From a virus, in IMG/VR virus record IMGVR_UViG_3300017971_000207, positions 32,001-96,000 of that record: a DNA stretch of 64,000 bases. One strand, given 5' to 3'. The notes beneath the pieces were generated by a model, which saw only the letters and a list, made by a program, of their open reading frames with translations, did not search any database and was not told the DNA's origin. Positions 6,440 through 60,215 of the stretch are shown piece after piece. Position 1 is the stretch's first letter; every line of letters starts with the position of its first letter. Position numbers and translations under genes: made by a program.

Positions 6440-6524
6440 TGCCCAAGCTGGGAATCGAACCCAGACGCCTCTACGAGACAACGGGTTTTAAACCCGTCCC
6501 GACTACCAATTACGGCACTTGGGC
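6440..6524 (-). tRNA. tRNA-Leu(TAA), long variable arm
   Basis: Acceptor GCCCAAG/CTTGGGC, anticodon arm ACGGG TTTAAAA CCCGT, T arm CTGGG TTCGATT CCCAG. Confidence 0.92.
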
Positions 6525-6953
6525 TAGAAACTGCGCGCGAGGACGAGCCCCGCAAGAATAAACCTGCCTTCTCCTACTCCACTTACCAGAGCAAGACTTG
6601 CTACAAAATGGCCCCGCCTTACCCTGCTTCCTATTCGAGCGGACCACACGTGCCGGTTTAGTTCCTTGTCCCCCACACTCAGGACAAGCAAAAACCACAA
6701 GCTCCTCGGACCTCGCATGCTCTCGCGCGTGGTCCCCACGAGAGATAACCTCCAGATTACCCAACGCATTGTTGGCTCTGTTTCCATCCCTGTGATGAAC
6801 ACACTCCCAACTCTCCAGCTTACGGCCCAGATGCGCCTCCATAACCTCCCGATGCTCTAGAACACTACGCTTAGTACCATCCGACAATCTCTCGACCCTC
6901 ATTCGGTACCCCTTCATGTTATACCAACCAGACCTCCACGCAACTTCAACCAT
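6510..6953 (-). CDS. Free-standing HNH endonuclease with C-terminal Cys (Zn-binding) region; start may be ATG 6917
   Basis: EHREVMEAHLGRKL...VHHRDGNRANNALGNL...H; CPEC and FCSKSC motifs. Confidence 0.9.
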   Translation of the reverse strand: MVEVAWRSGWYNMKGYRMRVERLSDGTKRSVLEHREVMEAHLGRKLESWECVHHRDGNRANNALGNLEVISRGDHAREHARSEELVVFACPECGGQGTKPARVVRSNRKQGKAGPFCSKSCSGKWSRRRQVYSCGARPRAQFLAQVP

Positions 6954-11076: not shown

Positions 11077-14000
11077 TCAATGAGCTGCCCATGACCTGCC
11101 AGTATCTCCCTCAGCGACGCACGGAACTGATCGCATCATCGGCTGAATGCCCTCAATCATCGCCTGCTCCACCTCCAGCTTCACCTGCGCCACGAGCTCC
11201 TCGTCATCGTCACACTCGACCACGATCTCGTCGTGCACCATGTGAACCATCTTGGCCCGAGAGCCGAAGCGCTTCAGGCGGAAGTACACGTTGCGTAGGG
11301 AGCGCTTGAGGCCGTCGGCCCCCGAGCCTTGGATCGGGGTGTTCCCTGTTATGAACACATGCCCACTACGCCGAGCCACGAAGAAGGTATTAGGAACAAT
11401 TGGGCACCATATCCCGAAAACACCCTTGAGCTGCCTCACATGCTTCTTAAGCACCTGCGCCTTGTCGCGGTTGAGCACAGTAACCTGCCAGTGCTCCGTC
11501 CCCTTGGGAACATTCTTAAGCTTGGGCGACCTCGGCCTGTACTTCCGCATATCGCGCTTCTTGATGGAGCCCACGTAACCGCAAAGCGTGCAGAGAATCT
11601 GGAAAACTTCTGCTCCCTCTCGGGAACGGCTGACAAAGGCCGTCTTATCGCTACGCCACCCATCCCCACCGATCATGGTTTGGAGCAGTAGACGACACTG
11701 CCGAGCCGTAAGCAGATTAAGAAGGTCCATGGTCAAAACACGGCCGGGGCAGAGCTGCACCAAAACCTCATTCAGAGGGTGCCGAAAGTACCACATACGC
11801 CCCCCCGCTTCCCCATTCTCGCTCTTCGAGTACCTCATCCCCAATCTACCCAGAAGCGCCTCAATACAAGCCACCTTATAAGGGTTAGCCCGCACACTCT
11901 GATAGAGCTTCAAGGACACCCCACTAGGCTTAGGACCACGCTTTCCGGGACGGTCGTAGACCCTACGGGTCTTCTGAATACCGCCGTCCGTCAACCACCA
12001 ACCAGCAAGCTCCACAAAGTCGTCCGACAGGAGGCTACTCTCGGGCCCTTCGTACCGACCGGTGCGATGGATGCGATCGTCACCATGACGCGAGAGTGTT
12101 GATGTCCGTCGCTCCATGTCCTTTCGGGCGCCCTTGTTGTAGACAAGCCAACGATGGTCCGCTGTGGACACCGCATGAAACGACTTTGACTTGAACTCCG
12201 TAAGCTCCCTCTCCACAGGCTCAAACACCCTTAAGTCCGTAGGAGCCTGCCACTCTAAGGCACCTGTTTTTGGGTTCTTGGTCAGAATCTCGTCGCCCAG
12301 AGCAAGATCCGGCCCTCTGACCCACCCCCGGCGTGTGAGCGCCTCCGTTTCAAAGTCTAGGCAGTTGAAGTACTCATTGCGCGCCGTCTCGGGGTCGAGG
12401 TAGCGCCGACGGCCCCACAGGGTGCGGGCATAGGGGACACGCTTCGCATCACGCAGAGAGCGCTCCTGCCACGCGCGCACGCGCGGGTAGCCGTCAAAGT
12501 AACGCTTGATGAACTTGTTGGCCTGCGCCTCTGTGATCGTCACCCCGTAGTTAGCCTGGGAGTACACGACCAGCTTCGCAGCTCCTAGCCCGTAGATGAG
12601 CCCGAAGTTGACCGGCTTCGCCGCCTGGCGCTGCGCCTTGGTCACCTCATCGTAGGGAACTCCCGCGACGATGCTAGCCGTCCGACGGTGCGCATCCTCC
12701 CCCCGAAGGTAGATACCAATAAGCACAGGGTCCTGCGTCACCTCCGCAGCAAGACGGAGCTCTATCTGTGAGTTATGACTAACAAAGCCGTCGCTGATAT
12801 AGGTCACGGGACCAGGGACCGACAGGTCATAGACATCCTCCTCACCATCAAGCTCTATCGAGTCCACCGCATCGAAGAACGTCCCGTCCTCCACCGTCCG
12901 GCTCAACCCCAGCTCCCGATAAACCTCCGGGTGCTCCTCGCGCAGCTTCACAGCCACCAGAAAGCTGACAGACCGCCCCAGAGACGCCGTGTTGTTGAGC
13001 AATCTCCGTACCTCCCCCTCCAGCCTCAGCTCCCTAACACGCTCCTGCATATTAGGCACAGAGCCCACCGTCGGAGATACGGGACCACGCCCTATCAAGC
13101 CCGACAGCTTCCCCTGCTTGCGCCACGAGAAGAACCCCACAGTCTCCACAAACCTAGAGAGGAACAACCGGGGGACACGCAGCGACCAGCCCACATAACG
13201 ACGCCCCTCCCCATGCCGCTCCTTGCGCCGAGTAGACAACACCCCCAGAGCCAGGAGCAGCTGTTGGACCTCAACAATAAGACGCCTGCGGGAGGAGACC
13301 AGCTTCACGTGGTCCCCCCCAGCACTACCGTCCGCCTCAAAGAGGCCCCGCAAAAAGGCGCCCACCACACGCGGCGGAGAGGACCAAAGAAACCCAGGCA
13401 CAGCCCCCTTTGAAACGCCTAAAGCTACAAACCAGTCGCGAAGCTGCTTGCGATTGACGTGCGTCTCAATGACGCCACGATACTCCTTGACATGTAGATC
13501 ACGAAGCCCGAACAGCTCCTCACACAGCCCCAGCAGACGCTCATGGACCGCCGGGTCCTTAGCGTTTACCACCCACCGAAGATAGTTGGACCCTAGATTC
13601 CCGTCCCCCACAAAGTAACCAACAAAGAAAGCCAAGTCCTCAGAGACCTCCCCAGGAACACGAACCTCCTTGCTGTTGACGCCACCAGAAGGCTTAGGCG
13701 GCAGCACAACCTTCGACGAAGCCTCCGACAAACCCCGGCCGGATTGCACAGCCACGTAGTCCGACGGCCCTATCTCATGTAGACGCTTCCAAACATAGGC
13801 TCCCTCACGGTCAAGGACTCTAATACGGTGAAGAGACGTAGCACGCAGCTCGTAGCCAAGCTTCGTCCGAATCCGATAGACAGACTGGACCCCTTTAGAG
13901 ATACGGTCGCTCACTCGATGCTTCGTCCCGTCCTCCACCAAGACCTCAGCACCTACGGCAACATTCTCCACCGGCACCAAACCCTCCGATGTCGCCACGC

Positions 14001-15951
14001 GCGTCCCCCCCACGACGCAATAGTCGGTAACGATTAGTATTCGGCCATCGCCCGGTCTGAAGCAATCACGGTACTCAAAAGCGCGAGGAATCTGCTGCAG
14101 GTTTGGCGATCGGCTATTATGAGAGAAGACCCCACAAGCCTCATAGCTCTCATCTACGGCGACGGTAATGTCATAGACCTCACGACTTCCGCAAGCGTAG
14201 ACTTCCTCAATTGTAACGTCTTGCTGTCCTTCAGCTGCCTGTAGTGAATAGCCTTGTGGCCTGAGTGAGTCACCAGCGCGAGGTTGTGCAGATCGTTGTT
14301 CTTCGGATCCCCGTCTATGTGATGGACCGTCAAGTGCTCGGGAATCTCCCCCAAGCCCAACGCTTCGGCCATCACCACGCGATGAACGAATCGCCTCTTG
14401 CCATTGTGCAGGCAAGTCAGATACCCATAGCCGTCGTCGCACAACCCCTTCCAGTTGTGGTGTTGCTCCCCCTTCTTGCCCCACATAGGATTCTGCTCCC
14501 CCGTCTTTGATGCCGAGTAACGCAGAGCTGCTAACGCCTTGCGCTCGGCCTCCGGCATACACGATCGTACCACATGCGACACGTTGTGAAACGTAGTCCC
14601 CAGCCTCTCGGCAACCTCTGTAAGCTTCAACATCTCCGGGCTCCGGTACAGTTCCAGAACATCCCGACGATTCTTCGCGTCCCCTGTCCAAGTCTTTGAT
14701 ACACTCATCTACCATACTCCGAACAGACTTCCACTCACCAGTAGAGAGTAGCAATCTGTGGGAGCCCGTGCACTTCAAAACCTCCCCGTTACTAAAACGT
14801 ACCGAATATATCCTCTCGGGTTTAAGCCTCCAATGGTTGATGACGGGCTGCCAACGCTCCTTGTGGGTCCATACCTGGTCACCGACAGAGACATCCTCCA
14901 TCCGCTTCATACCCTCAGTGGTCCGGATAAGTGTCTCCCCCACTACGCAGCTGTATCGGCCAGCTCCAGTTAGCGGCCAGAAGTCCGTATGGATACGACC
15001 CGTCTTCGGATTGATGTTCTCCAGGTAGTCAGGACCGAAGGAGTCGACACGCTTCGATATCTTGCGGTACTCGATGAAGAGCGGGAAGACCTTATGCTTT
15101 GTCGCGATCATCGCAATGAGGTCTGACGCCGTGCTCGTCAGACCAAGATTAAGCGGCTTACCGTTCGGCTTGGTCAGCGAGTTAAAGCTCGCGAGCACCT
15201 GCTGCGGCGAGCGGTAGTTGAAGCCCGAGGGAATGCCCGGCAGGCTCAGCAGCCCCTTCGGATGCGGCAGCATCACATCCAGCTTATTGCGCAGCTCCTC
15301 TAGCTTACGCTTGTTGGCCTCCGCTACCTTGAGCCACATCTCGCTATCCAACCGAAAGCCGTTCAGCTCTATCTCCGCCTCGGCGAGAGGGGCCCCGAAC
15401 TCGATCAAGGCTATACGGTTGAGCCCTGCCTTGGCCAGCTTCGGCTTGAGCGCGTCCCGCAGCTCTAGGAGGTACGTCACATCCTCCGCCGCATAGTCTA
15501 GCTGCTCTTCCCCAAGCTCGGCCGCCGACCAGTCCGACCCTCCCATGTCCCCTGTCCCTGGCTCTACCTTGAGCTCTCGGGCATACAGGTCATAAAGGTT
15601 GTTCCCCAAAAAGCGGCCATTGTGGATAATCGCAGAGGCCCGAAAGGTATCGAACACAGGCCACAATTCAATACCGTGGTGAAAGAGTAGCCACTTCTGC
15701 TCAAACTTCGCGTTCTGGATCACCTTAATGGCGGAGCCCTTCAGCGCCTCCACCAACGGCCCCATAGTGCACGTCTTGAACAGGTCAATGACGTAGATAC
15801 CCTGCCCTGTGTTGAGCTGCAGCAGCCGTATCTTCCCGTCGCGCGGGTCCAAGGAGGTGGTCTCAATGTCGAGACCCACCACCTTGGCGTTGTCGACCTC
15901 GTTGGCTATGGCCCCTAACCGCTCCGCAGAGGTGACGTATTCATAGCTCAT
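11077..15951 (-). CDS. polA: Family A DNA polymerase (3'-5' exonuclease plus polymerase) with three inteins (about 589 aa after splicing)
   Basis: LDIETT, QNAKFE, YAAED, GRYS|SRSPNLQQIP, DY|SQIELR, AKPVNFGLIYG, N|TPIQGSGADG, MVHDEIV. Confidence 0.96.
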   Translation of the reverse strand: MSYEYVTSAERLGAIANEVDNAKVVGLDIETTSLDPRDGKIRLLQLNTGQGIYVIDLFKTCTMGPLVEALKGSAIKVIQNAKFEQKWLLFHHGIELWPVFDTFRASAIIHNGRFLGNNLYDLYARELKVEPGTGDMGGSDWSAAELGEEQLDYAAEDVTYLLELRDALKPKLAKAGLNRIALIEFGAPLAEAEIELNGFRLDSEMWLKVAEANKRKLEELRNKLDVMLPHPKGLLSLPGIPSGFNYRSPQQVLASFNSLTKPNGKPLNLGLTSTASDLIAMIATKHKVFPLFIEYRKISKRVDSFGPDYLENINPKTGRIHTDFWPLTGAGRYSCVVGETLIRTTEGMKRMEDVSVGDQVWTHKERWQPVINHWRLKPERIYSVRFSNGEVLKCTGSHRLLLSTGEWKSVRSMVDECIKDLDRGREESSGCSGTVPEPGDVEAYRGCREAGDYVSQRVACGTIVYAGGRAQGVSSSALLGIKDGGAESYVGQEGGATPQLEGVVRRRLWVSDLPAQWQEAIRSSRGDGRSVGLGGDSRALDGPSHRRGSEEQRSAQPRAGDSLRPQGYSLQAAEGQQDVTIEEVYACGSREVYDITVAVDESYEACGVFSHNSRSPNLQQIPRAFEYRDCFRPGDGRILIVTDYCVVGGTRVATSEGLVPVENVAVGAEVLVEDGTKHRVSDRISKGVQSVYRIRTKLGYELRATSLHRIRVLDREGAYVWKRLHEIGPSDYVAVQSGRGLSEASSKVVLPPKPSGGVNSKEVRVPGEVSEDLAFFVGYFVGDGNLGSNYLRWVVNAKDPAVHERLLGLCEELFGLRDLHVKEYRGVIETHVNRKQLRDWFVALGVSKGAVPGFLWSSPPRVVGAFLRGLFEADGSAGGDHVKLVSSRRRLIVEVQQLLLALGVLSTRRKERHGEGRRYVGWSLRVPRLFLSRFVETVGFFSWRKQGKLSGLIGRGPVSPTVGSVPNMQERVRELRLEGEVRRLLNNTASLGRSVSFLVAVKLREEHPEVYRELGLSRTVEDGTFFDAVDSIELDGEEDVYDLSVPGPVTYISDGFVSHNSQIELRLAAEVTQDPVLIGIYLRGEDAHRRTASIVAGVPYDEVTKAQRQAAKPVNFGLIYGLGAAKLVVYSQANYGVTITEAQANKFIKRYFDGYPRVRAWQERSLRDAKRVPYARTLWGRRRYLDPETARNEYFNCLDFETEALTRRGWVRGPDLALGDEILTKNPKTGALEWQAPTDLRVFEPVERELTEFKSKSFHAVSTADHRWLVYNKGARKDMERRTSTLSRHGDDRIHRTGRYEGPESSLLSDDFVELAGWWLTDGGIQKTRRVYDRPGKRGPKPSGVSLKLYQSVRANPYKVACIEALLGRLGMRYSKSENGEAGGRMWYFRHPLNEVLVQLCPGRVLTMDLLNLLTARQCRLLLQTMIGGDGWRSDKTAFVSRSREGAEVFQILCTLCGYVGSIKKRDMRKYRPRSPKLKNVPKGTEHWQVTVLNRDKAQVLKKHVRQLKGVFGIWCPIVPNTFFVARRSGHVFITGNTPIQGSGADGLKRSLRNVYFRLKRFGSRAKMVHMVHDEIVVECDDDEELVAQVKLEVEQAMIEGIQPMMRSVPCVAEGDTGRSWAAH
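11341..12363 (-). mobile_element. PolA intein 3 (341 aa), LAGLIDADG-type, ends GN
   Basis: FN|CLDFETEALT...LAGWWLTDGG...MIGGDG...FITGN|T. Confidence 0.92.
12772..14019 (-). mobile_element. PolA intein 2 (416 aa), LAGLIDADG
   Basis: DY|CVVGGTRV...FVGYFVGDG...FLRGLFEADG...VSHN|S. Confidence 0.94.
14116..14949 (-). mobile_element. PolA intein 1 (278 aa), no in-frame endonuclease
   Basis: YS|CVVGETLI...CTGSHRL...VYDITV...FSHN|S; low-complexity centre. Confidence 0.93.
14154..14708 (-). CDS. HNH endonuclease (N-terminal HTH-like region) nested in the +1 frame of PolA intein 1
   Basis: GGAG 8 nt before ATG 14708; VHRVVMAEALG...VHHIDGDPKNNDLHNLAL...H...H. Confidence 0.9.
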   Translation of the reverse strand: MSVSKTWTGDAKNRRDVLELYRSPEMLKLTEVAERLGTTFHNVSHVVRSCMPEAERKALAALRYSASKTGEQNPMWGKKGEQHHNWKGLCDDGYGYLTCLHNGKRRFVHRVVMAEALGLGEIPEHLTVHHIDGDPKNNDLHNLALVTHSGHKAIHYRQLKDSKTLQLRKSTLAEVVRSMTLPSP

Positions 15952-52910: not shown

Positions 52911-53257
52911 TCCTAGCCCTGGCAGCCCTGGTGCTAACCGGCTGTCCCCAGTTTAAGCCGTGGGCCCGAACAGCCCTCGAAGCAGCCCGACACGCCTGCG
53001 CTGCCTACGCGGAGCAAACGGGCCTGTCCTTCAAGGACGTGTGCGACACCGAGGAGAAGCTACGTCCGTTTATCGATTCGATCCTAGCAGCTCAAGCAGC
53101 AGCCGCGGCAAAGGGGGCGGCCGGAGCCTGCAAGTGCCCAAAGTGTGAGGAGGCCCCCAAGCCCGCTGCCCCCGCACCGAAGCCGCCTCCCCCCACGCCC
53201 TCCGCAAAGCCGGAGGCCAAACCCATCCCCAAGCCTGAGCCAGCACCAGGAGGCTGA
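52886..53257 (+). CDS. Lipoprotein with Pro/Lys-rich tail
   Basis: MRK, hydrophobic stretch, LTGC lipobox. Confidence 0.75.
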   Translation: MRKAATTLILALAALVLTGCPQFKPWARTALEAARHACAAYAEQTGLSFKDVCDTEEKLRPFIDSILAAQAAAAAKGAAGACKCPKCEEAPKPAAPAPKPPPPTPSAKPEAKPIPKPEPAPGG

Positions 53258-53258
53258 G

Positions 53259-56200
53259 ATGACGGAGAAAGGCACAGGCTACATCCCATCGCCAGAGGAC
53301 GAGCGGGACTACCCGCTGATAGGCCCAGGCGAGAACGCCCTCTTCGGGGCGCTGAACACAACGGTCCCCACCGAGCATCTAGCAATGCTACCGTTGATCG
53401 ACTTCATCCGTGATCAAGGCGGCACCAACTCGTGCTTTCCTGCGGGCACTCGCGTGCTCCTGGAAGGCTTTACAGAGCGACCTATCGAACAGATTGCTCC
53501 AGGAAACCGTGTGCGGACGCACACAGGCCGAAGCGGTGCCGTCACAAAGGTGTCTGAGAGACCCTACGAGGGGCTGCTGTATTCGATCAAAGTAGGAGGC
53601 TGGATATACCCCCTAGAGGCTACTCCCGAGCACCCCGTAGCCGTCATCGCCAACGTGTCCGCCAGAGCAAAGCACGGAGACTTCGAGCCTGGTGAGCTAA
53701 CGTGGCGCCGGTTTGACGCGATACGTCCAGGAGATCGTGTAGTCATGCCTGCAGACACCCGAGAGTTCCCCGAGGACTATCGGTCTGCGTGGCACGTGCT
53801 GCGCGTAGCGGACTATCTGGAAGGGGAGTACTGGGAGGAAGATGGCGCTGTTCGAGCGGCCATGGGAAGACGGGGGAGTGAGATACCTGCGGAGCTGGGG
53901 CTCACCCCCGATATCGGCAGGCTTCTCGGGCTGTTCCTAGCAGAGGGCAGCTTTCTCAAACCCAGCGGCACTAAACAGGGTGTGGCGTTCACCTTTGCGC
54001 GGCACGAAGCGCTCCTCCACACCTTCGTCTTGGAGGCCATGAGGACACACTTCGACCTGGAGGGCCAGAAGGAGGAGACGGAGCAGAAGCCCAACGTCAC
54101 AACGTTGCTATTCTACAGCTCAACTGTAGCGCAGCTGTTCTACGCTCTGTGCGGAGAAGGGGCGCTACAGAAGCGCGTGCCCGACGTGTTTTTTGAGACA
54201 GGGCGCGACGTGAAGCTCGCACTCATCCGAGGGTGGTTTCAAGGAGATGGGTCTCAAGACCCCGTTCGTCTCCGCAGAAAGAAGGACGGCACTGTGCGCA
54301 AAGCTGCGGCCGTTCAAGGAGTCACAAGCTCTGAGGAGCTCCACCGTGGGCTATACCGCTTAGCCTCTCTCTGTAACATCAAGCTCAGTACGCAGCAGAG
54401 AAAGGTAGCGGAGCATCAAAACGCTGCCGGCCGCGAGCTGAACCTTTACGGGGACAACATCCTAAAGGTGTTCCCCGATGCAGCACCGCGCCTGGAAGCC
54501 GCTGGGATAAAGCTATCGGGACGGACCCGCTACCGAAAGCACGCCTTGGGATATCTGTGCCGCGTAGAGGAGGTTTCTATGCGTGAGGCCCCCGCAGACA
54601 CTAAGGTCTACAACTTGGAAGTCGAGGGGGATCACTCGTACGTTGCCGAGGGCATCGCCGTCCACAACTGCGTCTGGCAATCCATCCAGCAGCAGCACTA
54701 CATCGCACAGGGGGTACACGGGGTGCAGCAACGTCTACCCCTGAGCGTGATGTTCGGCTACTACCACACGCGCCTTCGCGGGGGCACGCAGAGGTTTGAC
54801 AATGGCTGCTTCCCCAGGCTGGCCTGGCAGGTGGCGGAGAAGATCGGATTCTGTATCGAGGACCTGTGGCCCTTCAAGGAGCCCGAGATAAACCGACCGC
54901 CGAGTCTAGATGCCACCTCCGGGGCCATAGACCAGCGGTGGGTGCACGGCTACTACCACATCCTCGGACGCCCACGAGAGGAGGAGGTCCGACAGGCCCT
55001 CTCAAACAACCACCCTGTGGTATTCGGGACCGTCGTCGACAACGATTTCAAGCGGTACAAGGGCTCTAACCTTAGCACCGAGCCTATGAAGCCTCCGACG
55101 GGCCACTCCGGACGCCATATGATGTGCGCAGTTGCGTACGATCAAGACGGTCTGTGGGTGATCAACTCGTGGGGCTGTTACGACGATAAGACGGAGATTC
55201 TAACCGCCGCTGGGTGGAAGTCTTTTGCTGATGTCGTGGTGGGTGAGCCCGTCGCAACGCTTAATAGCCACGGGGAGCTGGAGTACCAGAATACGACTGA
55301 CGTTCAACGCTACATCTACGACGGAGAGTTGTGGTCTTACCAGTCCCAAGGCGTAGACCTTGTTGTGACGCCAAACCACAACATGCTCATAGGACGCCGT
55401 TGTCGCGAAGGCGGTAAGCGCGTCCCCAAGTGGGAGCGCGTTCCGGCTGATCGCATCAACACCAAACACTTCTTGATGAAGAAAACGGCTGCCTGGTCAG
55501 GCGAAGAGCCTCCTTACATTGAGGTCGGTCCCCACAGGATACCAACGGAGCTTTGGGTCGAGTTCCTCGGCTACTTCTTGTCCGAAGGTCATGCCCGAGA
55601 GAACGTGGTCCAACGGCCGGAGCGTGTGGCGCTTAACGGTACGACAGGTCGCGAGAAGCGGTACAGCGCGTGCAGCGAAACTCAGTACCTGGTGGGTATC
55701 CATCAAACCAAGTCTGAAGGTGTCTTCAAGATGGGCGCCTGTCTACGTCGCATGCCTGCCGCCTTCACCCGCATAACAGGGGGTTGGCAGGCAACATCTA
55801 GCCCACTGTGCGAGCATCTTCTCCCGCTCGGAAAAGCGCATCAGAAGTACATTCCTCCCTACGTCAAAAGGCTCTCTCCTCGGCTTCTACGAGTGTTCCT
55901 GAAGGCCGCTTGTCTCGGCGACGGCTCCCCTGTAGGCCGCAACGGCAGCGTCTACTACACCTCGTCCAAGCGGCTTGCTGACGATATACAGGAGGTTGCA
56001 CTAAAGGCCGGGATGTGTGCAGATATACGCGAGGATGATCGCCGCGGTCGTACTAATGCGCGGGGGACCACTCGCTATGTGAACTACCAGGTGGCAATCA
56101 AACCCGTGAGGGGAGAAACCAAACCCAAAGGAGGCTTCACGCCAACAAAGATCCCCTACAAAGGTTTCGTGCGCTGCGTCACAGTACCGAACGGTCTGGT

Positions 56201-56369
56201 CTATGTTCGACGCAATGGTAAGGCGGTCTGGTCGGGCAACTCCGACTGGGGCTGCCCGGACCCATCAGGGTTCTATCGATCGGGGTTCTTTCATATGTCC
56301 TGGGAATGGGTAAACTGGTCAAGTGCCACTGATTGGTGGGCCGTCCAATACCCAAAGATGTTCGTTTAG
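53259..56369 (+). CDS. Papain-family (C1) cysteine peptidase with two inteins (about 269 aa after splicing)
   Basis: AGGAGG SD before ATG 53259; DERDY; RDQGGTNS|CV; GRHMMCAVAYD; INSWG|SDWG...GFFHM. Confidence 0.88.
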   Translation: MTEKGTGYIPSPEDERDYPLIGPGENALFGALNTTVPTEHLAMLPLIDFIRDQGGTNSCFPAGTRVLLEGFTERPIEQIAPGNRVRTHTGRSGAVTKVSERPYEGLLYSIKVGGWIYPLEATPEHPVAVIANVSARAKHGDFEPGELTWRRFDAIRPGDRVVMPADTREFPEDYRSAWHVLRVADYLEGEYWEEDGAVRAAMGRRGSEIPAELGLTPDIGRLLGLFLAEGSFLKPSGTKQGVAFTFARHEALLHTFVLEAMRTHFDLEGQKEETEQKPNVTTLLFYSSTVAQLFYALCGEGALQKRVPDVFFETGRDVKLALIRGWFQGDGSQDPVRLRRKKDGTVRKAAAVQGVTSSEELHRGLYRLASLCNIKLSTQQRKVAEHQNAAGRELNLYGDNILKVFPDAAPRLEAAGIKLSGRTRYRKHALGYLCRVEEVSMREAPADTKVYNLEVEGDHSYVAEGIAVHNCVWQSIQQQHYIAQGVHGVQQRLPLSVMFGYYHTRLRGGTQRFDNGCFPRLAWQVAEKIGFCIEDLWPFKEPEINRPPSLDATSGAIDQRWVHGYYHILGRPREEEVRQALSNNHPVVFGTVVDNDFKRYKGSNLSTEPMKPPTGHSGRHMMCAVAYDQDGLWVINSWGCYDDKTEILTAAGWKSFADVVVGEPVATLNSHGELEYQNTTDVQRYIYDGELWSYQSQGVDLVVTPNHNMLIGRRCREGGKRVPKWERVPADRINTKHFLMKKTAAWSGEEPPYIEVGPHRIPTELWVEFLGYFLSEGHARENVVQRPERVALNGTTGREKRYSACSETQYLVGIHQTKSEGVFKMGACLRRMPAAFTRITGGWQATSSPLCEHLLPLGKAHQKYIPPYVKRLSPRLLRVFLKAACLGDGSPVGRNGSVYYTSSKRLADDIQEVALKAGMCADIREDDRRGRTNARGTTRYVNYQVAIKPVRGETKPKGGFTPTKIPYKGFVRCVTVPNGLVYVRRNGKAVWSGNSDWGCPDPSGFYRSGFFHMSWEWVNWSSATDWWAVQYPKMFV
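53433..54668 (+). mobile_element. Peptidase intein 1 (412 aa), LAGLIDADG, directly before the catalytic Cys
   Basis: NS|CFPAGTRV...TPEHPV...LGLFLAEG...WFQGDG...AVHN|C. Confidence 0.93.
55176..56240 (+). mobile_element. Peptidase intein 2 (355 aa), LAGLIDADG, ends GN
   Basis: SWG|CYDDKTEILT...TPNHNM...LGYFLSEG...LGDG...WSGN|S. Confidence 0.92.
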
Positions 56370-56381
56370 GAGACCAACACA

Positions 56382-56738
56382 ATGAATCGTGAGCTAAACC
56401 GCTTGTTAGAGAGCGTACGTGCAGAGCTGGCAGAGGGCCTCCCCAAAGGGAAGTACCTGGGCCTACGAGACGCAAAAAGCATCGACATGAACCGTGTCCG
56501 GGTTGATCTAGAGACCACCTCTGGGGACAATCTAGGGGGCAACATCGAAACCCTCTTGAGAGGTGAGGACGATGTAAGGTGGCTTACGAGGCCGCCGCGA
56601 CGAGGGGAGGGCACCGCGAGCTTCACCATCTTCGTCCGGGACCCGGACGAGTTCAAGTACCTGTGGAACACGTTGGAGCGTGCAGAGATCTACGACGACA
56701 CTATCCTAAACTTCTACGTCAGCGTCACGGACATCTAG
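56382..56738 (+). CDS. Hypothetical protein
   Basis: AGGAG SD. Confidence 0.7.
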   Translation: MNRELNRLLESVRAELAEGLPKGKYLGLRDAKSIDMNRVRVDLETTSGDNLGGNIETLLRGEDDVRWLTRPPRRGEGTASFTIFVRDPDEFKYLWNTLERAEIYDDTILNFYVSVTDI

Positions 56739-56747
56739 GATATCGAC

Positions 56748-57089
56748 ATGCACCACCTTCCCTTCTTACTCATGCTGGCCCTCATGGTCTGCATGCTCCC
56801 CGCCTGCCCGGACCCTGTCATCCCTGGCCCTCAATGGGACGGGGGGTCTGTTGAGCCCGACCCCGTTCTACCCCCTGGTGTTGATGCCAACGAGGCTGCC
56901 TGCAAGCGCCTAGAGGAGCTGCAGTGCAAGTCAAAGGATGGGCGCAACCTCTGGGAGCCCACACCCGGCGGCGTCTCCTGCGTCGACGTGTTCCGCAACG
57001 CAGAGAAGAATGGGGTCAACCTACACCCTGCGTGTTTGGCTAAAATAGAACGCTGTGAGGATAGGCATCGGTGTACCGACAAGGGCTAG
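56748..57089 (+). CDS. Cys-rich putative lipoprotein
   Basis: Hydrophobic signal with LPAC lipobox; six further Cys. Confidence 0.7.
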   Translation: MHHLPFLLMLALMVCMLPACPDPVIPGPQWDGGSVEPDPVLPPGVDANEAACKRLEELQCKSKDGRNLWEPTPGGVSCVDVFRNAEKNGVNLHPACLAKIERCEDRHRCTDKG

Positions 57090-57592
57090 TCCAGATGCGC
57101 CCATAAACGGCGTGTGACAAGTGCATGCACCAGGCTCTCACTGACATGGTACTTCTCCGCCAAGCTTCTCAGGGACACCTTTCGAGGGACGTATCTCCGC
57201 CTGATGTCTCGCACCTGTTCAGGAGTAAGCTTGGCGGACCCGTTGGCTTCGCCTGGGTGTGCAACGTGTCGTCCTTTGGACATCATGTCTCTCATGTTAT
57301 CCGTGTGGGTCCCAACCCACAGGTGCTCTGGGTTGACGCAGGGTGGGTTGTCACACTTGTGCAGAACACAGAGCCCCTCGGGTATAGGGCCGCGGGTAAG
57401 CTCCCAAGATACTCGGTGGGCATAGGTAGATATGCTGCTGAGTTCCTGTCGGCTCCCCTGCCTGAAGAACCCATACTGGGTACGGGAGTGTCGAGGACCC
57501 GTCCAAAGCCAACAATCTCCACTACAGTCCACATGTTTCCAGAATCGCTCGGTCTCGACCAGGCCGAAGGTAGTCTGCTGTCTTGCTGTCAT
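57086..57592 (-). CDS. HNH endonuclease with C-terminal HTH
   Basis: RFWKHV...CWLWTG...AHRVSW...VLHKCDNPPCVNPEHL...N. Confidence 0.93.
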   Translation of the reverse strand: MTARQQTTFGLVETERFWKHVDCSGDCWLWTGPRHSRTQYGFFRQGSRQELSSISTYAHRVSWELTRGPIPEGLCVLHKCDNPPCVNPEHLWVGTHTDNMRDMMSKGRHVAHPGEANGSAKLTPEQVRDIRRRYVPRKVSLRSLAEKYHVSESLVHALVTRRLWAHLD

Positions 57593-57819
57593 GATGCAGG
57601 AGGCTCCGCAGGCGTACGAAGACCTCGGACCGCGACTAGCTGGGCTTCCAGAGATTGCTCTGCCTTCGGCAGCTCCTTGGCCAAGAACTCCCCCAACGCT
57701 TCCTTGATCAGCTTGTTTAGCGTAGTCTCTCTGTAGTCGGCTAGGAACTTGAGACGCTTGTGGGTAAAAGGATACAACCTAACAGTGATTTTGACAGGAT
57801 CTTCGTCTTTTGACTCCAT
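57589..57819 (-). CDS. Ribbon-helix-helix (CopG/Arc-like) protein coupled to the HNH gene
   Basis: VKITVRL...HKRLKFLA...TLNKLIKEAL; ATGA overlap. Confidence 0.75.
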   Translation of the reverse strand: MESKDEDPVKITVRLYPFTHKRLKFLADYRETTLNKLIKEALGEFLAKELPKAEQSLEAQLVAVRGLRTPAEPPAS

Positions 57820-57916
57820 AATAGGAGTATGGCGGCATACTCAAGAGTTGCCGTCAAACCAACCGAAGATCGAAAAGTGTGAGGACCGTCACAGCTGCAC
57901 CGACAAAGGATAGCCC

Positions 57917-59434
57917 ATGACCAGCAAGGCACAATTGACCGAGGAGATGCGGCGCCTGATGGGTGTTGCGCCACGACCGCTGGGGCCTTGGTCAGATAGA
58001 CCAGAGGAGACCTGGAAAGAGCCGATCACCACAAAGCTCGATGAGGCCAAGCTCAAGGTAGACTGGGACGAGGGGATAAAGATAGTCGACCAGGCTCTGA
58101 ACAAGCTTCGGACGACCGGCCCCAAGTGGCTGAAGGGCCTTGTAGGGGACGACTGGAAGGCAGGGAAGGTCCAGAAGACCAAAGGCAAAGGAGCCCAGAA
58201 GAAGTACACCGGGCGCCTTCGGCTCTTTGTGGGCCCCTCTGTCAGCAACGCCAGCAAGACCGTTGTGGTGACCCTGACGCAGACAGAGGCGCCGGGAGAG
58301 CACGACTACTACACCGGCGTATACACCACAGGGCTAATCGAGATCGACGCCTCCTGTAAGCTACTGTTGGGCAAAAAGGGTGTAGGCGGCGCCAAGGTGG
58401 GCCTACCCGACCTAAGCGCCATTCAGGACCTTACTGCCAGCGTGCTTACCACCTTTAAGCCTTACCTTGAAAAGCACTTTGGTAGCCCGAGTGGAGAGGA
58501 TGCGAAGGACCTCGCTAAGGATACCCTAAACGACGCGGCACAAGAGCTACTACCGTGGCTCAAGGGCCTTACAGGCGACAAGTGGTATGCTTCCTCAGTG
58601 GGCCCAGAGACGCTGCGACTCCACGTCGGTCTAAGCTACGCCGACGCGCCGATCTCGATGACCATAATCCTGAAGTACGACCCCATCAAGGGGACCTTCA
58701 CCGCAACAGCTCGCGCCTTCTCCGGGGAGGGGCTGATGGATAAGGTCACCAAGGACAATCTCAAGTCGGATGGTCTGCAGGGGGTTGTCGCCATCGCGAA
58801 AAGCTTACAGCCGGTGATAAAGCTGGCGTCCGAGGCTGCTCAAGAGGTCGCGGCGACGAACACCGAGGAGATCATCTTGGACGCTGTCGCGAACTTGGTA
58901 GCCGATGGTCTGGTGTGGCTAAAGGATGTAACCGGCGAACCGGACGGCTGGAAGATCACAAAACCTACGGAGCACGACCCCTGGATGTACTTCAACCTGA
59001 ACCCGCCGGGGAAGAGCTTCACCTTGACGGTCGGAGTGGTGGTTGACCCGTTGGACGAGGGCGAGGGCTTCCAGGTCATCACGGACGTTCTAGGCAAACA
59101 GGGACAGCCCTTTGCCCACCACGGTCCTGTGATCGCTAGTGAGGACGACCTAAAGGACCTAGTCAAGGTGGCTTTGAAGCCTGTTGAGAAGAACATCAAG
59201 GAGGTCATCAAAGCGGAGGGGGCCAAGGTCCTTACCTTGATCAAAGATATTCGCACAGACTACAAGAAGATGCGCAAGGGCCTTGTCATGGCACGTGCCG
59301 CCTTGGAGTTCGTCAGCGAGAAGCTAGAGGTGGAGGATTTCACGGGGGTCGAGGCAAAATGCCTGGAGTTCGAGGAGAAGCTCGGCGCGGCACTCGACAG
59401 CTCGAAGCAGCTTCGCTCAAAGCTCCCTTACTAA
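57917..59434 (+). CDS. Hypothetical protein with three copies of a repeated domain and C-terminal coiled coil; possible internal head protein
   Basis: GPKWLKGLVGDDWK, LPWLKGLTGDKWY, LVWLKDVTGEPDGWK. Confidence 0.7.
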   Translation: MTSKAQLTEEMRRLMGVAPRPLGPWSDRPEETWKEPITTKLDEAKLKVDWDEGIKIVDQALNKLRTTGPKWLKGLVGDDWKAGKVQKTKGKGAQKKYTGRLRLFVGPSVSNASKTVVVTLTQTEAPGEHDYYTGVYTTGLIEIDASCKLLLGKKGVGGAKVGLPDLSAIQDLTASVLTTFKPYLEKHFGSPSGEDAKDLAKDTLNDAAQELLPWLKGLTGDKWYASSVGPETLRLHVGLSYADAPISMTIILKYDPIKGTFTATARAFSGEGLMDKVTKDNLKSDGLQGVVAIAKSLQPVIKLASEAAQEVAATNTEEIILDAVANLVADGLVWLKDVTGEPDGWKITKPTEHDPWMYFNLNPPGKSFTLTVGVVVDPLDEGEGFQVITDVLGKQGQPFAHHGPVIASEDDLKDLVKVALKPVEKNIKEVIKAEGAKVLTLIKDIRTDYKKMRKGLVMARAALEFVSEKLEVEDFTGVEAKCLEFEEKLGAALDSSKQLRSKLPY

Positions 59435-59477: not shown

Positions 59478-60215
59478 GTGAGCAAACTGCAAGAGCAGCG
59501 GCGATTGATGGGGCTAGAGCCTCGACCTATGGGGCCATGGGCTCAGGACGCAGAGGGCGCGGGTCCTCCTGATGAGGAGATAGTAGAGGCGACCCAAGGA
59601 CCCTGGGTAAAGATGAACCGCGCCCTCAAGAAGGCAGAAAAAGACGGGGTCTCCTGGATCAAAACGAACGTAGCCGACCGAGACTGGAAGACCTCCCTAA
59701 CCACGGCCGACAAGAATTACCCCTACGGGCGGCTGGAGATCTACCTTCTTAGCCCCGAGGGAGTTTTCGAGAAGAACCTCTGGGACCTGACCATCTACCT
59801 AACGTGGACCGCATCCTTAAGCTCAGACACAGACCCCAAGTTCAAAGCGCGCATCCGTTTGGAGGACAAGCAAGGCCAGGTTCACGTGGAGGAGACCAAG
59901 GAAGAGGTCAGCGCTGCGGACATCAAGGACCTCAAGAACCTGCTACTGCTGCCCAACAAGAAAGCTTTGGCCGATGCTTTTGCCCCCGGAGCCCAACAGA
60001 AGAAGTCGTTGAAGGACCTCCGGCGAGCATACAAGGATGCTCGCCAGAACCTCGTCTCTATGAGGGACAAGATCGAGGTTCTCAGCCAGCACCTAGAGAA
60101 AAGCGCGCTCGCGGATGTAAAGGATTCGGCTCAAGAGCTGTACAGCATGGAACTCAAGCTATCCTCAGCAATAAAGAAGCTGCGGAACTCTGCGGCCACC
60201 GCCGCAGAGTTCTAA
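59478..60215 (+). CDS. Single-domain paralog of the preceding gene
   Basis: Shared RRLMG..PRP.GPW leader, GVSWIKTNVADRDWK, similar coiled coil. Confidence 0.7.
   Translation: MSKLQEQRRLMGLEPRPMGPWAQDAEGAGPPDEEIVEATQGPWVKMNRALKKAEKDGVSWIKTNVADRDWKTSLTTADKNYPYGRLEIYLLSPEGVFEKNLWDLTIYLTWTASLSSDTDPKFKARIRLEDKQGQVHVEETKEEVSAADIKDLKNLLLLPNKKALADAFAPGAQQKKSLKDLRRAYKDARQNLVSMRDKIEVLSQHLEKSALADVKDSAQELYSMELKLSSAIKKLRNSAATAAEF

Follow-up and report, generated by a model that had tools for sequence, protein, structure and literature searches.

How does a viral gene come to have two ends, and which of them is its own? At the locus described here, the last 15 codons of a gene for a Cys-rich lipoprotein, together with the stop codon, occur again 824 nt further on, where they lie orphaned in front of the next gene. 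Two genes occupy the space between the copies on the opposite strand, one for an HNH endonuclease and one for a small ribbon-helix-helix (RHH)-like protein. The locus belongs to an IMG/VR virus record of 145 kb (IMGVR_UViG_3300017971_000207), which is about 64% complete and has a G+C content of about 60%. The window analyzed is a stretch of 64,000 nt corresponding to bases 32001-96000 of this record, and coordinates are those of the window.

The locus is part of a block of plus-strand genes that runs from a peptidase gene through a 118-aa gene, the lipoprotein gene and the cassette to a 505-aa gene. The peptidase gene (53145-56369, plus strand, from the list of open reading frames) encodes a papain-like enzyme with two inteins. 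It has about 1074 codons including the two intein-like inserts, and its counterparts without inserts in four relatives (L003, L004, L006, and L008) measure 269-276 aa. The 118-aa gene (56382-56738, plus strand), which separates the peptidase and lipoprotein genes, was placed in no family by a family search, and a structural-neighbor search returned no convincing neighbor. It is missing from all relatives examined (L003, L004, L006, L008, L010, and L017), in which the peptidase gene adjoins or overlaps the lipoprotein gene; this gene is a second lineage-specific insertion, at which no flanking repeat was seen. The lipoprotein gene itself (56748..57089, plus strand) encodes 113 aa; its body is like that of a resident gene and its last 15 codons form copy 1 of the repeat. 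The 505-aa gene (57917..59434, plus strand) follows the cassette, and its start is the one that abuts the lipoprotein stop codon in cassette-free relatives.

The Two Ends of the Lipoprotein Gene

The copies are the top direct repeat found by a repeat search, which extended them to 52 nt at 71% identity (57042-57093 and 57866-57917). Copy 1 (57042..57089, plus strand) is the in-frame gene end now in use and was probably imported with the cassette. Copy 2 (57866..57913, plus strand) is the orphaned gene end, which now serves as the 5′ leader of the next gene. The original prediction had pointed to this repeat as a gene end recurring 824 nt downstream with 13 of 15 residues unchanged and mostly synonymous differences, and had placed the end of the orphan 3 nt before the ATG at 57917, with a likely Shine-Dalgarno sequence inside it. 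All of its coordinates and letters were correct on checking. At 34 of 48 bases and 13 of 15 residues the copies are identical; both end in TAG, and the 14 differences fall at third, first, and second codon positions in the ratio 10/3/1. When 14 random substitutions were simulated, none of 200,000 trials kept 13 of the 15 residues and the stop codon. As random substitution never reproduces the pattern, each end must have diverged in its own lineage while it served a working gene, before the two were brought together; at the level of codons, the comparison shows divergence under purifying selection. No further match to the tail peptide at 8 or more of its 15 residues was found in the six frames of the 145-kb record.

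The translation of copy 2 agrees with the family consensus at 14 of 15 residues. Copy 2 ends at 57913, leaving a gap of 3 nt before the next ATG, and contains AAAGGA (57905-57910) at Shine-Dalgarno distance from that start codon. This motif is a plausible Shine-Dalgarno sequence for the 505-aa gene. The stop codon of copy 1 is followed on the plus strand by TCCAGATG (57090-57103) and then by a mini-ORF of three codons, while copy 2 is followed by CCCATG. These bases offer a very faint hint that the repeat may extend slightly past the stop codon and include a relic of the start of the donor's next gene.

The Antisense HNH-RHH Operon

The original prediction placed an antisense HNH gene and an RHH gene between the copies, and both were found there on the minus strand. 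The nuclease gene (57086..57592, minus strand) encodes a free-standing HNH_3 endonuclease of 168 aa that matches Pfam PF13392 with an E-value of 1.2e-14, above the cut-off. Further matches are to PHROG endonuclease families and to the PADLOC model "homing endonuclease" (E 9e-7), the only PADLOC match obtained. An alignment of 20 sequences shows that the conserved residues H59, R60, H78, D81, N82, C85, H90, N99, and D102 are all kept. The C-terminus ends at the natural length for the family and its region is helix-turn-helix-like. With every invariant family residue in place, the alignment shows the gene to be intact. Its stop codon and that of the lipoprotein gene overlap in the palindrome CTAG.

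The nuclease is encoded by its own antisense ORF, outside any intron or intein. Within the cassette region, no Rfam match was obtained on either strand at E-values up to 1 and no tRNA was found. An intron, by which the lipoprotein body would be spliced to copy 2, was considered and is ruled out by the lack of an Rfam match or a tRNA and by the antisense orientation of the nuclease gene. A search with the nuclease against PDB sequences gave no match, its closest relatives are about 50% identical, and the INPHARED phage collection yielded distant HNH matches only. Three homologs elsewhere lie between genes in the same orientation as their neighbors; they lack an RHH partner, and no duplication was noted there. 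The window contains further HNH_3 genes at 6510-6953 and 14154-14708, both on the minus strand; the latter sits in another frame inside a 1624-aa ORF (11077-15951). No protein-level duplicates were found flanking the other three HNH_3 genes of the record, so the layout is not a general property of the family.

Upstream of the nuclease gene, and overlapping it by the four nucleotides ATGA, is the RHH-like gene (57589..57819, minus strand; 76 aa), and the pair forms an antisense two-gene operon. Sequence matches of the RHH-like protein to known families stay below threshold (HicB, 20.2 bits against a cut-off of 21; Antitox_RHH, 18.3 against 27.2), and a match to a PHROG Arc-like repressor is weak (E 1.2e-4). 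It has no match by sequence in the PDB and none in PADLOC. A tblastn search against phages found no relatives, and an exhaustive HMMER search returned three weak matches among 1.8 billion representatives. Since the protein is nearly without sequence relatives, its pairing with the nuclease cannot be traced elsewhere. An AF2 model of the single chain is one long helix (pLDDT 77) and is uninformative. A homodimer model clears its controls, with a score of 0.53 against 0.00 for the best control, agreement between runs in at least 91% of contacts and pLDDT of at least 81; in the calibration of this score, the mark was reached by 21 of 30 solved homodimers and by 0 of 23 single chains. Contacts in the predicted dimer include 12:12, 13:13, and 14:10. 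The symmetric 12:12 and 13:13 contacts fit the antiparallel ribbon of an RHH dimer; as a model, this may reflect resemblance to solved RHH dimers.

What might such a dimer bind? Repeat, fold, and dyad scans identify overlapping dyad symmetries around the start of the RHH gene (57790..57871), where the original prediction had noted overlapping hairpins. Nested inverted repeats are indeed present, with arms at 57798-57805/57864-57871, 57809-57814/57853-57858, and 57825-57831/57836-57842. A second dyad centered at 57824 ranks in the top 0.016% of centers in the window, and TTTGAC/GTCAAA occurs three times within 57790..57871. On the minus strand, the RNA around the start folds with a z-score of -2.9. 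The dyads are candidate operators or, alternatively, a candidate translational hairpin. A consensus scan of 56300-58300 found no sigma-70-like promoter for the operon.

Cassette-Free Relatives and the Ancestral Arrangement

The lipoprotein family has 17 members in a large protein collection, and its invariant residues C103, R106, and C109 lie within the last 15 residues. The tail is therefore indispensable, and any element that displaces it must replace it if a working protein is to be made. The nearest lineage is represented by three relatives (L010, L017, and L023) with 78% amino acid identity, in which the lipoprotein gene comes after the peptidase gene and no cassette is present. In all three, the lipoprotein stop codon lies 2 nt before the ATG of a gene that begins MGYLSEEQRRLMGIAPRPLGAW. 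This gene is a homolog of the 505-aa gene of the window, as judged from the 364-aa protein of L023 (E 6e-52). The original prediction had proposed a search for phages without the cassette, in which the second copy should be joined to the lipoprotein gene, and in these genomes the lipoprotein end does abut the next ATG, at the place where copy 2 lies.

A four-way DNA alignment shows the relatives to be colinear with the window as far as copy 1 and then, beyond the cassette, once more beginning with copy 2, and the sole overlap shared by both stretches is the 48-nt tail. On this alignment, the ancestral state is a single tail abutting the next gene, at the position of copy 2, and the comparison shows a presence/absence polymorphism of the cassette at one site among related genomes. 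Across the locus, the window phage and L017 are 71-78% identical at the nucleotide level, and the two copies are 71% identical to each other. In scans of IMG/VR and JGI metagenomes, neither the protein nor the family alignment retrieved a relative closer than 78% amino acid identity. Neither tail occurs as an exact match in IMG/VR, and no donor was found in the collections searched.

Almost every lineage has a different gene just after the lipoprotein gene (L004, 3325-3489; L008, 5339-5659; L006, 2960-4243; L003, 4315-4584). Judged by gene order, the downstream junction of the lipoprotein gene is a recurrent mosaic boundary.

The 505-aa protein has features of its own. No other relative of similar length was found in a word-indexed protein database. 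The protein aligns twice to its 364-aa homolog in L023, through residues 7-320 and 198-504, both onto about 4-364; its N-terminal module thus seems to be tandemly duplicated internally. An N-terminal motif, (E)EQRRLMG-x2-PRP-x-G-x-W, opens consecutive genes, namely the 505-aa gene and a 245-aa gene in the window (57917-57990 and 59478-59560) and three genes in L023 (168-240, 1273-1340, and 1560-1630). It may be a shared N-terminal targeting or processing signal.

Which End Was Probably Imported

If one end was brought in, which one? Of the 14 sites that distinguish the copies, ten relatives agree with copy 2 at 4-9 and with copy 1 at 1-5, and each of them is nearer to copy 2; a tail like copy 1 occurs in none of the ten. 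Copy 1 has a CAI of 0.56 and a GC3 of 0.53, which puts it at the 5th percentile of the 15-codon windows of the genome for codon typicality. The cassette genes have CAI values of 0.61-0.65, and the body of the lipoprotein gene is typical at 0.76. The tract of atypical codons starts near 57021, which suggests that a short stretch upstream of the repeat was co-converted from about this point. These codon-usage and outgroup arguments draw on 15 codons and on ten relatives that are not independent of one another, the best insert-free relatives being 71-78% identical at the nucleotide level. The position of the nuclease gene bears on the same question. The complete HNH ORF, including its stop codon, lies within the insert only if the insert is 57042-57865, so copy 1 would belong to the insert.

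Codon usage, the tails of the relatives, the position of the HNH stop codon, and the match of copy 2 to the family consensus together make it probable, with good odds, that copy 1 is imported and copy 2 is resident. This agrees with the original prediction in so far as it held that the original tail stays downstream; the relatives favor copy 2 throughout, and the codons of copy 1 are atypical in the way of the cassette. The same prediction had called the new tail "recoded" and "cleavage-resistant," and this wording is not supported as it stands: it implies design or selection, whereas the synonymous pattern is that of two orthologous ends diverged in separate lineages. An imported foreign end explains the pattern, and no recoding is needed.

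A Proposed Route of Insertion and Its Alternatives

The reading that we prefer, with a probability of roughly 0.6, is that an insert of 824 nt (57042-57865), made up of a foreign lipoprotein gene end and the antisense RHH-HNH operon, was donated by a diverged related phage through homing and one-sided repair. The HNH protein would act as a free-standing homing endonuclease that breaks the cassette-free allele near the junction of body and tail. Repair of the break from a cassette-bearing donor would then copy the donor's gene end together with the cassette. On the left side, repair would have relied on homology within the lipoprotein gene, perhaps starting at about 57021. On the right side, it would have ended in a one-sided non-homologous join at 57865|57866 that left the resident end in place. 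As a result, the lipoprotein gene would now read through the imported copy 1, with the resident copy 2 stranded downstream.

Such an event would have consequences for both the element and its host. The insert now divides the presumed cut site, and the left half is different at 14 of 48 bases; a genome carrying the cassette should therefore be spared further cutting. By binding the palindromes that span the start of its own gene, the RHH dimer probably represses the operon. What keeps copy 2 in place is probably the ribosome-binding site of the following gene, which it contains and which in relatives overlaps the lipoprotein end. Given this overlap, duplication would be the sole way in which an insert at this site leaves both genes working. 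We infer the direction of transfer, the repair route, cleavage, immunity, and regulation alike from the arrangement of the locus. A bolder version of this scheme, which we offer only tentatively, would make the cassette a self-contained "cut and rescue" unit that moves in one piece between diverged phages: a nuclease, an RHH protein that represses the operon and also restrains the nuclease, and a spare gene end that renders the insertion harmless and splits the target.

Could the transfer have run the other way? Copy 1 might be the resident end, with the cassette and copy 2 arriving together, possibly as part of a whole right-hand module that includes the 505-aa gene, in which case copy 2 would have restored the downstream ribosome-binding site. 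With direct repeats on both sides, the limits of an insert are inherently ambiguous, the variable genes after the lipoprotein gene mark a mosaic boundary, and two derived bases in copy 2 (sites 42 and 45) create AAAGGA, all of which would suit this mirror image. However, the stop codon of the HNH gene would then fall outside the insert, in host sequence, yet the protein has the natural length of its family. The atypical codon usage of the cassette is common to copy 1 but not to copy 2, the gene body is typical, and ten of ten relatives lie nearer to copy 2; we consider the mirror image unlikely. A true recoding would start from a duplication made in place at insertion, after which the copies diverged and selection favored synonymous changes in the working copy that prevent renewed cutting or loss through the repeats. 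Most of the differences are indeed synonymous, and reduced homology between its flanking repeats would benefit a selfish element. Nevertheless, ten synonymous changes in 15 codons amount to genus-level divergence. In that time the HNH gene has still remained intact, and an orphan that codes for nothing would be expected to lose its frame, residues or stop codon, not to retain 14 of 15 consensus residues. Together with the failure of random change to keep the pattern and the shift of copy 1 toward rarer codons, this makes duplication in place very unlikely.

It could also be asked whether the operon is a homing element at all. The RHH-HNH pair might be mainly a toxin-antitoxin-like or inter-phage exclusion module that does not home, with the duplication left behind by non-homologous recombination. 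The gene order, a small RHH gene ahead of the nuclease gene with a 4-nt overlap, is that of type II toxin-antitoxin operons; the operon runs antisense to its neighbors, and the RHH protein has its weak matches to the HicB and Antitox_RHH antitoxin families. Those matches are below curated cut-offs, however, and the nuclease belongs to no known toxin family as would be expected of a type II system. It is a member of the HNH_3 homing family with a C-terminal DNA-binding region and matches homing-endonuclease families only, in PADLOC as elsewhere. In addition, the insert sits exactly in a conserved coding target with both flanking genes kept working, and a role of this kind is quite improbable. 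Lastly, two strains could have been merged into one contig during assembly; the source is a metagenome, and related phages do occur in a single sequencing run (L005 and L009, both from SRR6963591). Against this, an independent Logan assembly contig (L009) is 100% identical to the locus over 8342 nt, which makes an artefact an unlikely source of the layout. The reading frames are also all intact and tightly joined, through the CTAG and ATGA overlaps, and the cassette has no counterpart in co-occurring relatives, so that we give the merging of strains almost no credence.

Relation to Known Systems

The closest parallel is found in fungal mitochondria, where mORF "gene hybrids" arise when a foreign C-terminal coding end is inserted together with an endonuclease ORF and the native C-terminal end is displaced (PMC3630166). 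In the Glomus atp6, atp9, cox2, and nad3 hybrids, the copies are 64-81% identical in nucleotides and at least 91% identical in amino acids (Beaudet et al., 2013; PMC3630166). A precedent in Allomyces macrogynus atp6 was explained by horizontal transfer (Paquin et al., 1994, cited in PMC3630166). The locus described here shares with these hybrids an endonuclease ORF between two copies of the C-terminal coding end of the host gene, an upstream copy that completes the ORF, and low nucleotide but high residue identity between copies (here 71 and 87%). The foreign origin of the upstream copy and the native origin of the downstream one would likewise correspond. Differences are also apparent. The host is a phage and not an organelle, the nuclease is of the HNH rather than the LAGLIDADG or GIY-YIG type, and its gene is antisense and unfused to the host ORF. 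A second gene, for the RHH protein, rides along, and the orphan also provides the ribosome-binding site for the gene behind it. That copy 2 is native is judged here from relatives that are 71-78% identical, none of them near-identical.

Among phages, the free-standing endonucleases SegF, SegG, and MobE of T4-like phages take part in intronless homing (reviewed in PMC2988022). As in those systems, a free-standing gene, HNH or GIY-YIG, is located between or next to conserved genes and occurs in some relatives but not in others. T4-like homing is accompanied by co-conversion of flanking markers, and differences in target sequence protect the carrier; the tract from about 57021 and the altered left half of the cut site may be the counterparts of these features. 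The T4 elements lie between genes or split them, as in Aeh1 nrdA, whereas here a gene end is duplicated and both neighbors are intact (PMC2988022). The word "duplication" is absent from that review. In T4 intron homing, one-sided illegitimate repair has been observed experimentally (summarized in PMC2988022). Homology on one side and an ectopic junction on the other are features of both cases; the T4 observation was made with a laboratory construct containing an intron, whereas the route proposed here is read back from a natural product. Nuclease genes have also been described at the borders of segments exchanged between phages (PMC10448857).

Taken purely as a layout, the insert supplies a new end to the interrupted gene, and the old end survives beside it as a flanking repeat. 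The same is true of integrating elements that bring their own 3′ end for the target gene, for example phages and islands with an attP within tRNA genes. Those elements use site-specific integrases and have near-identical att repeats, whereas the present insert has no integrase and its repeats are 29% diverged. No published phage example of a carried gene end was found in the literature searched.

Significance

The layout is, by comparison, one already established in fungal mitochondria and not a new principle. It indicates that a homing endonuclease can settle inside a conserved phage coding sequence without an intron or intein by bringing a substitute gene end. In the duplicated segment the end of one gene overlaps the ribosome-binding site of the next, and this double duty would explain why the orphan copy has been kept. 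The layout resembles engineered cut-and-rescue gene drives. For genome annotation, such orphan ends are easily overlooked or mistaken for repeats, and they also mark boundaries of exchange between phages.
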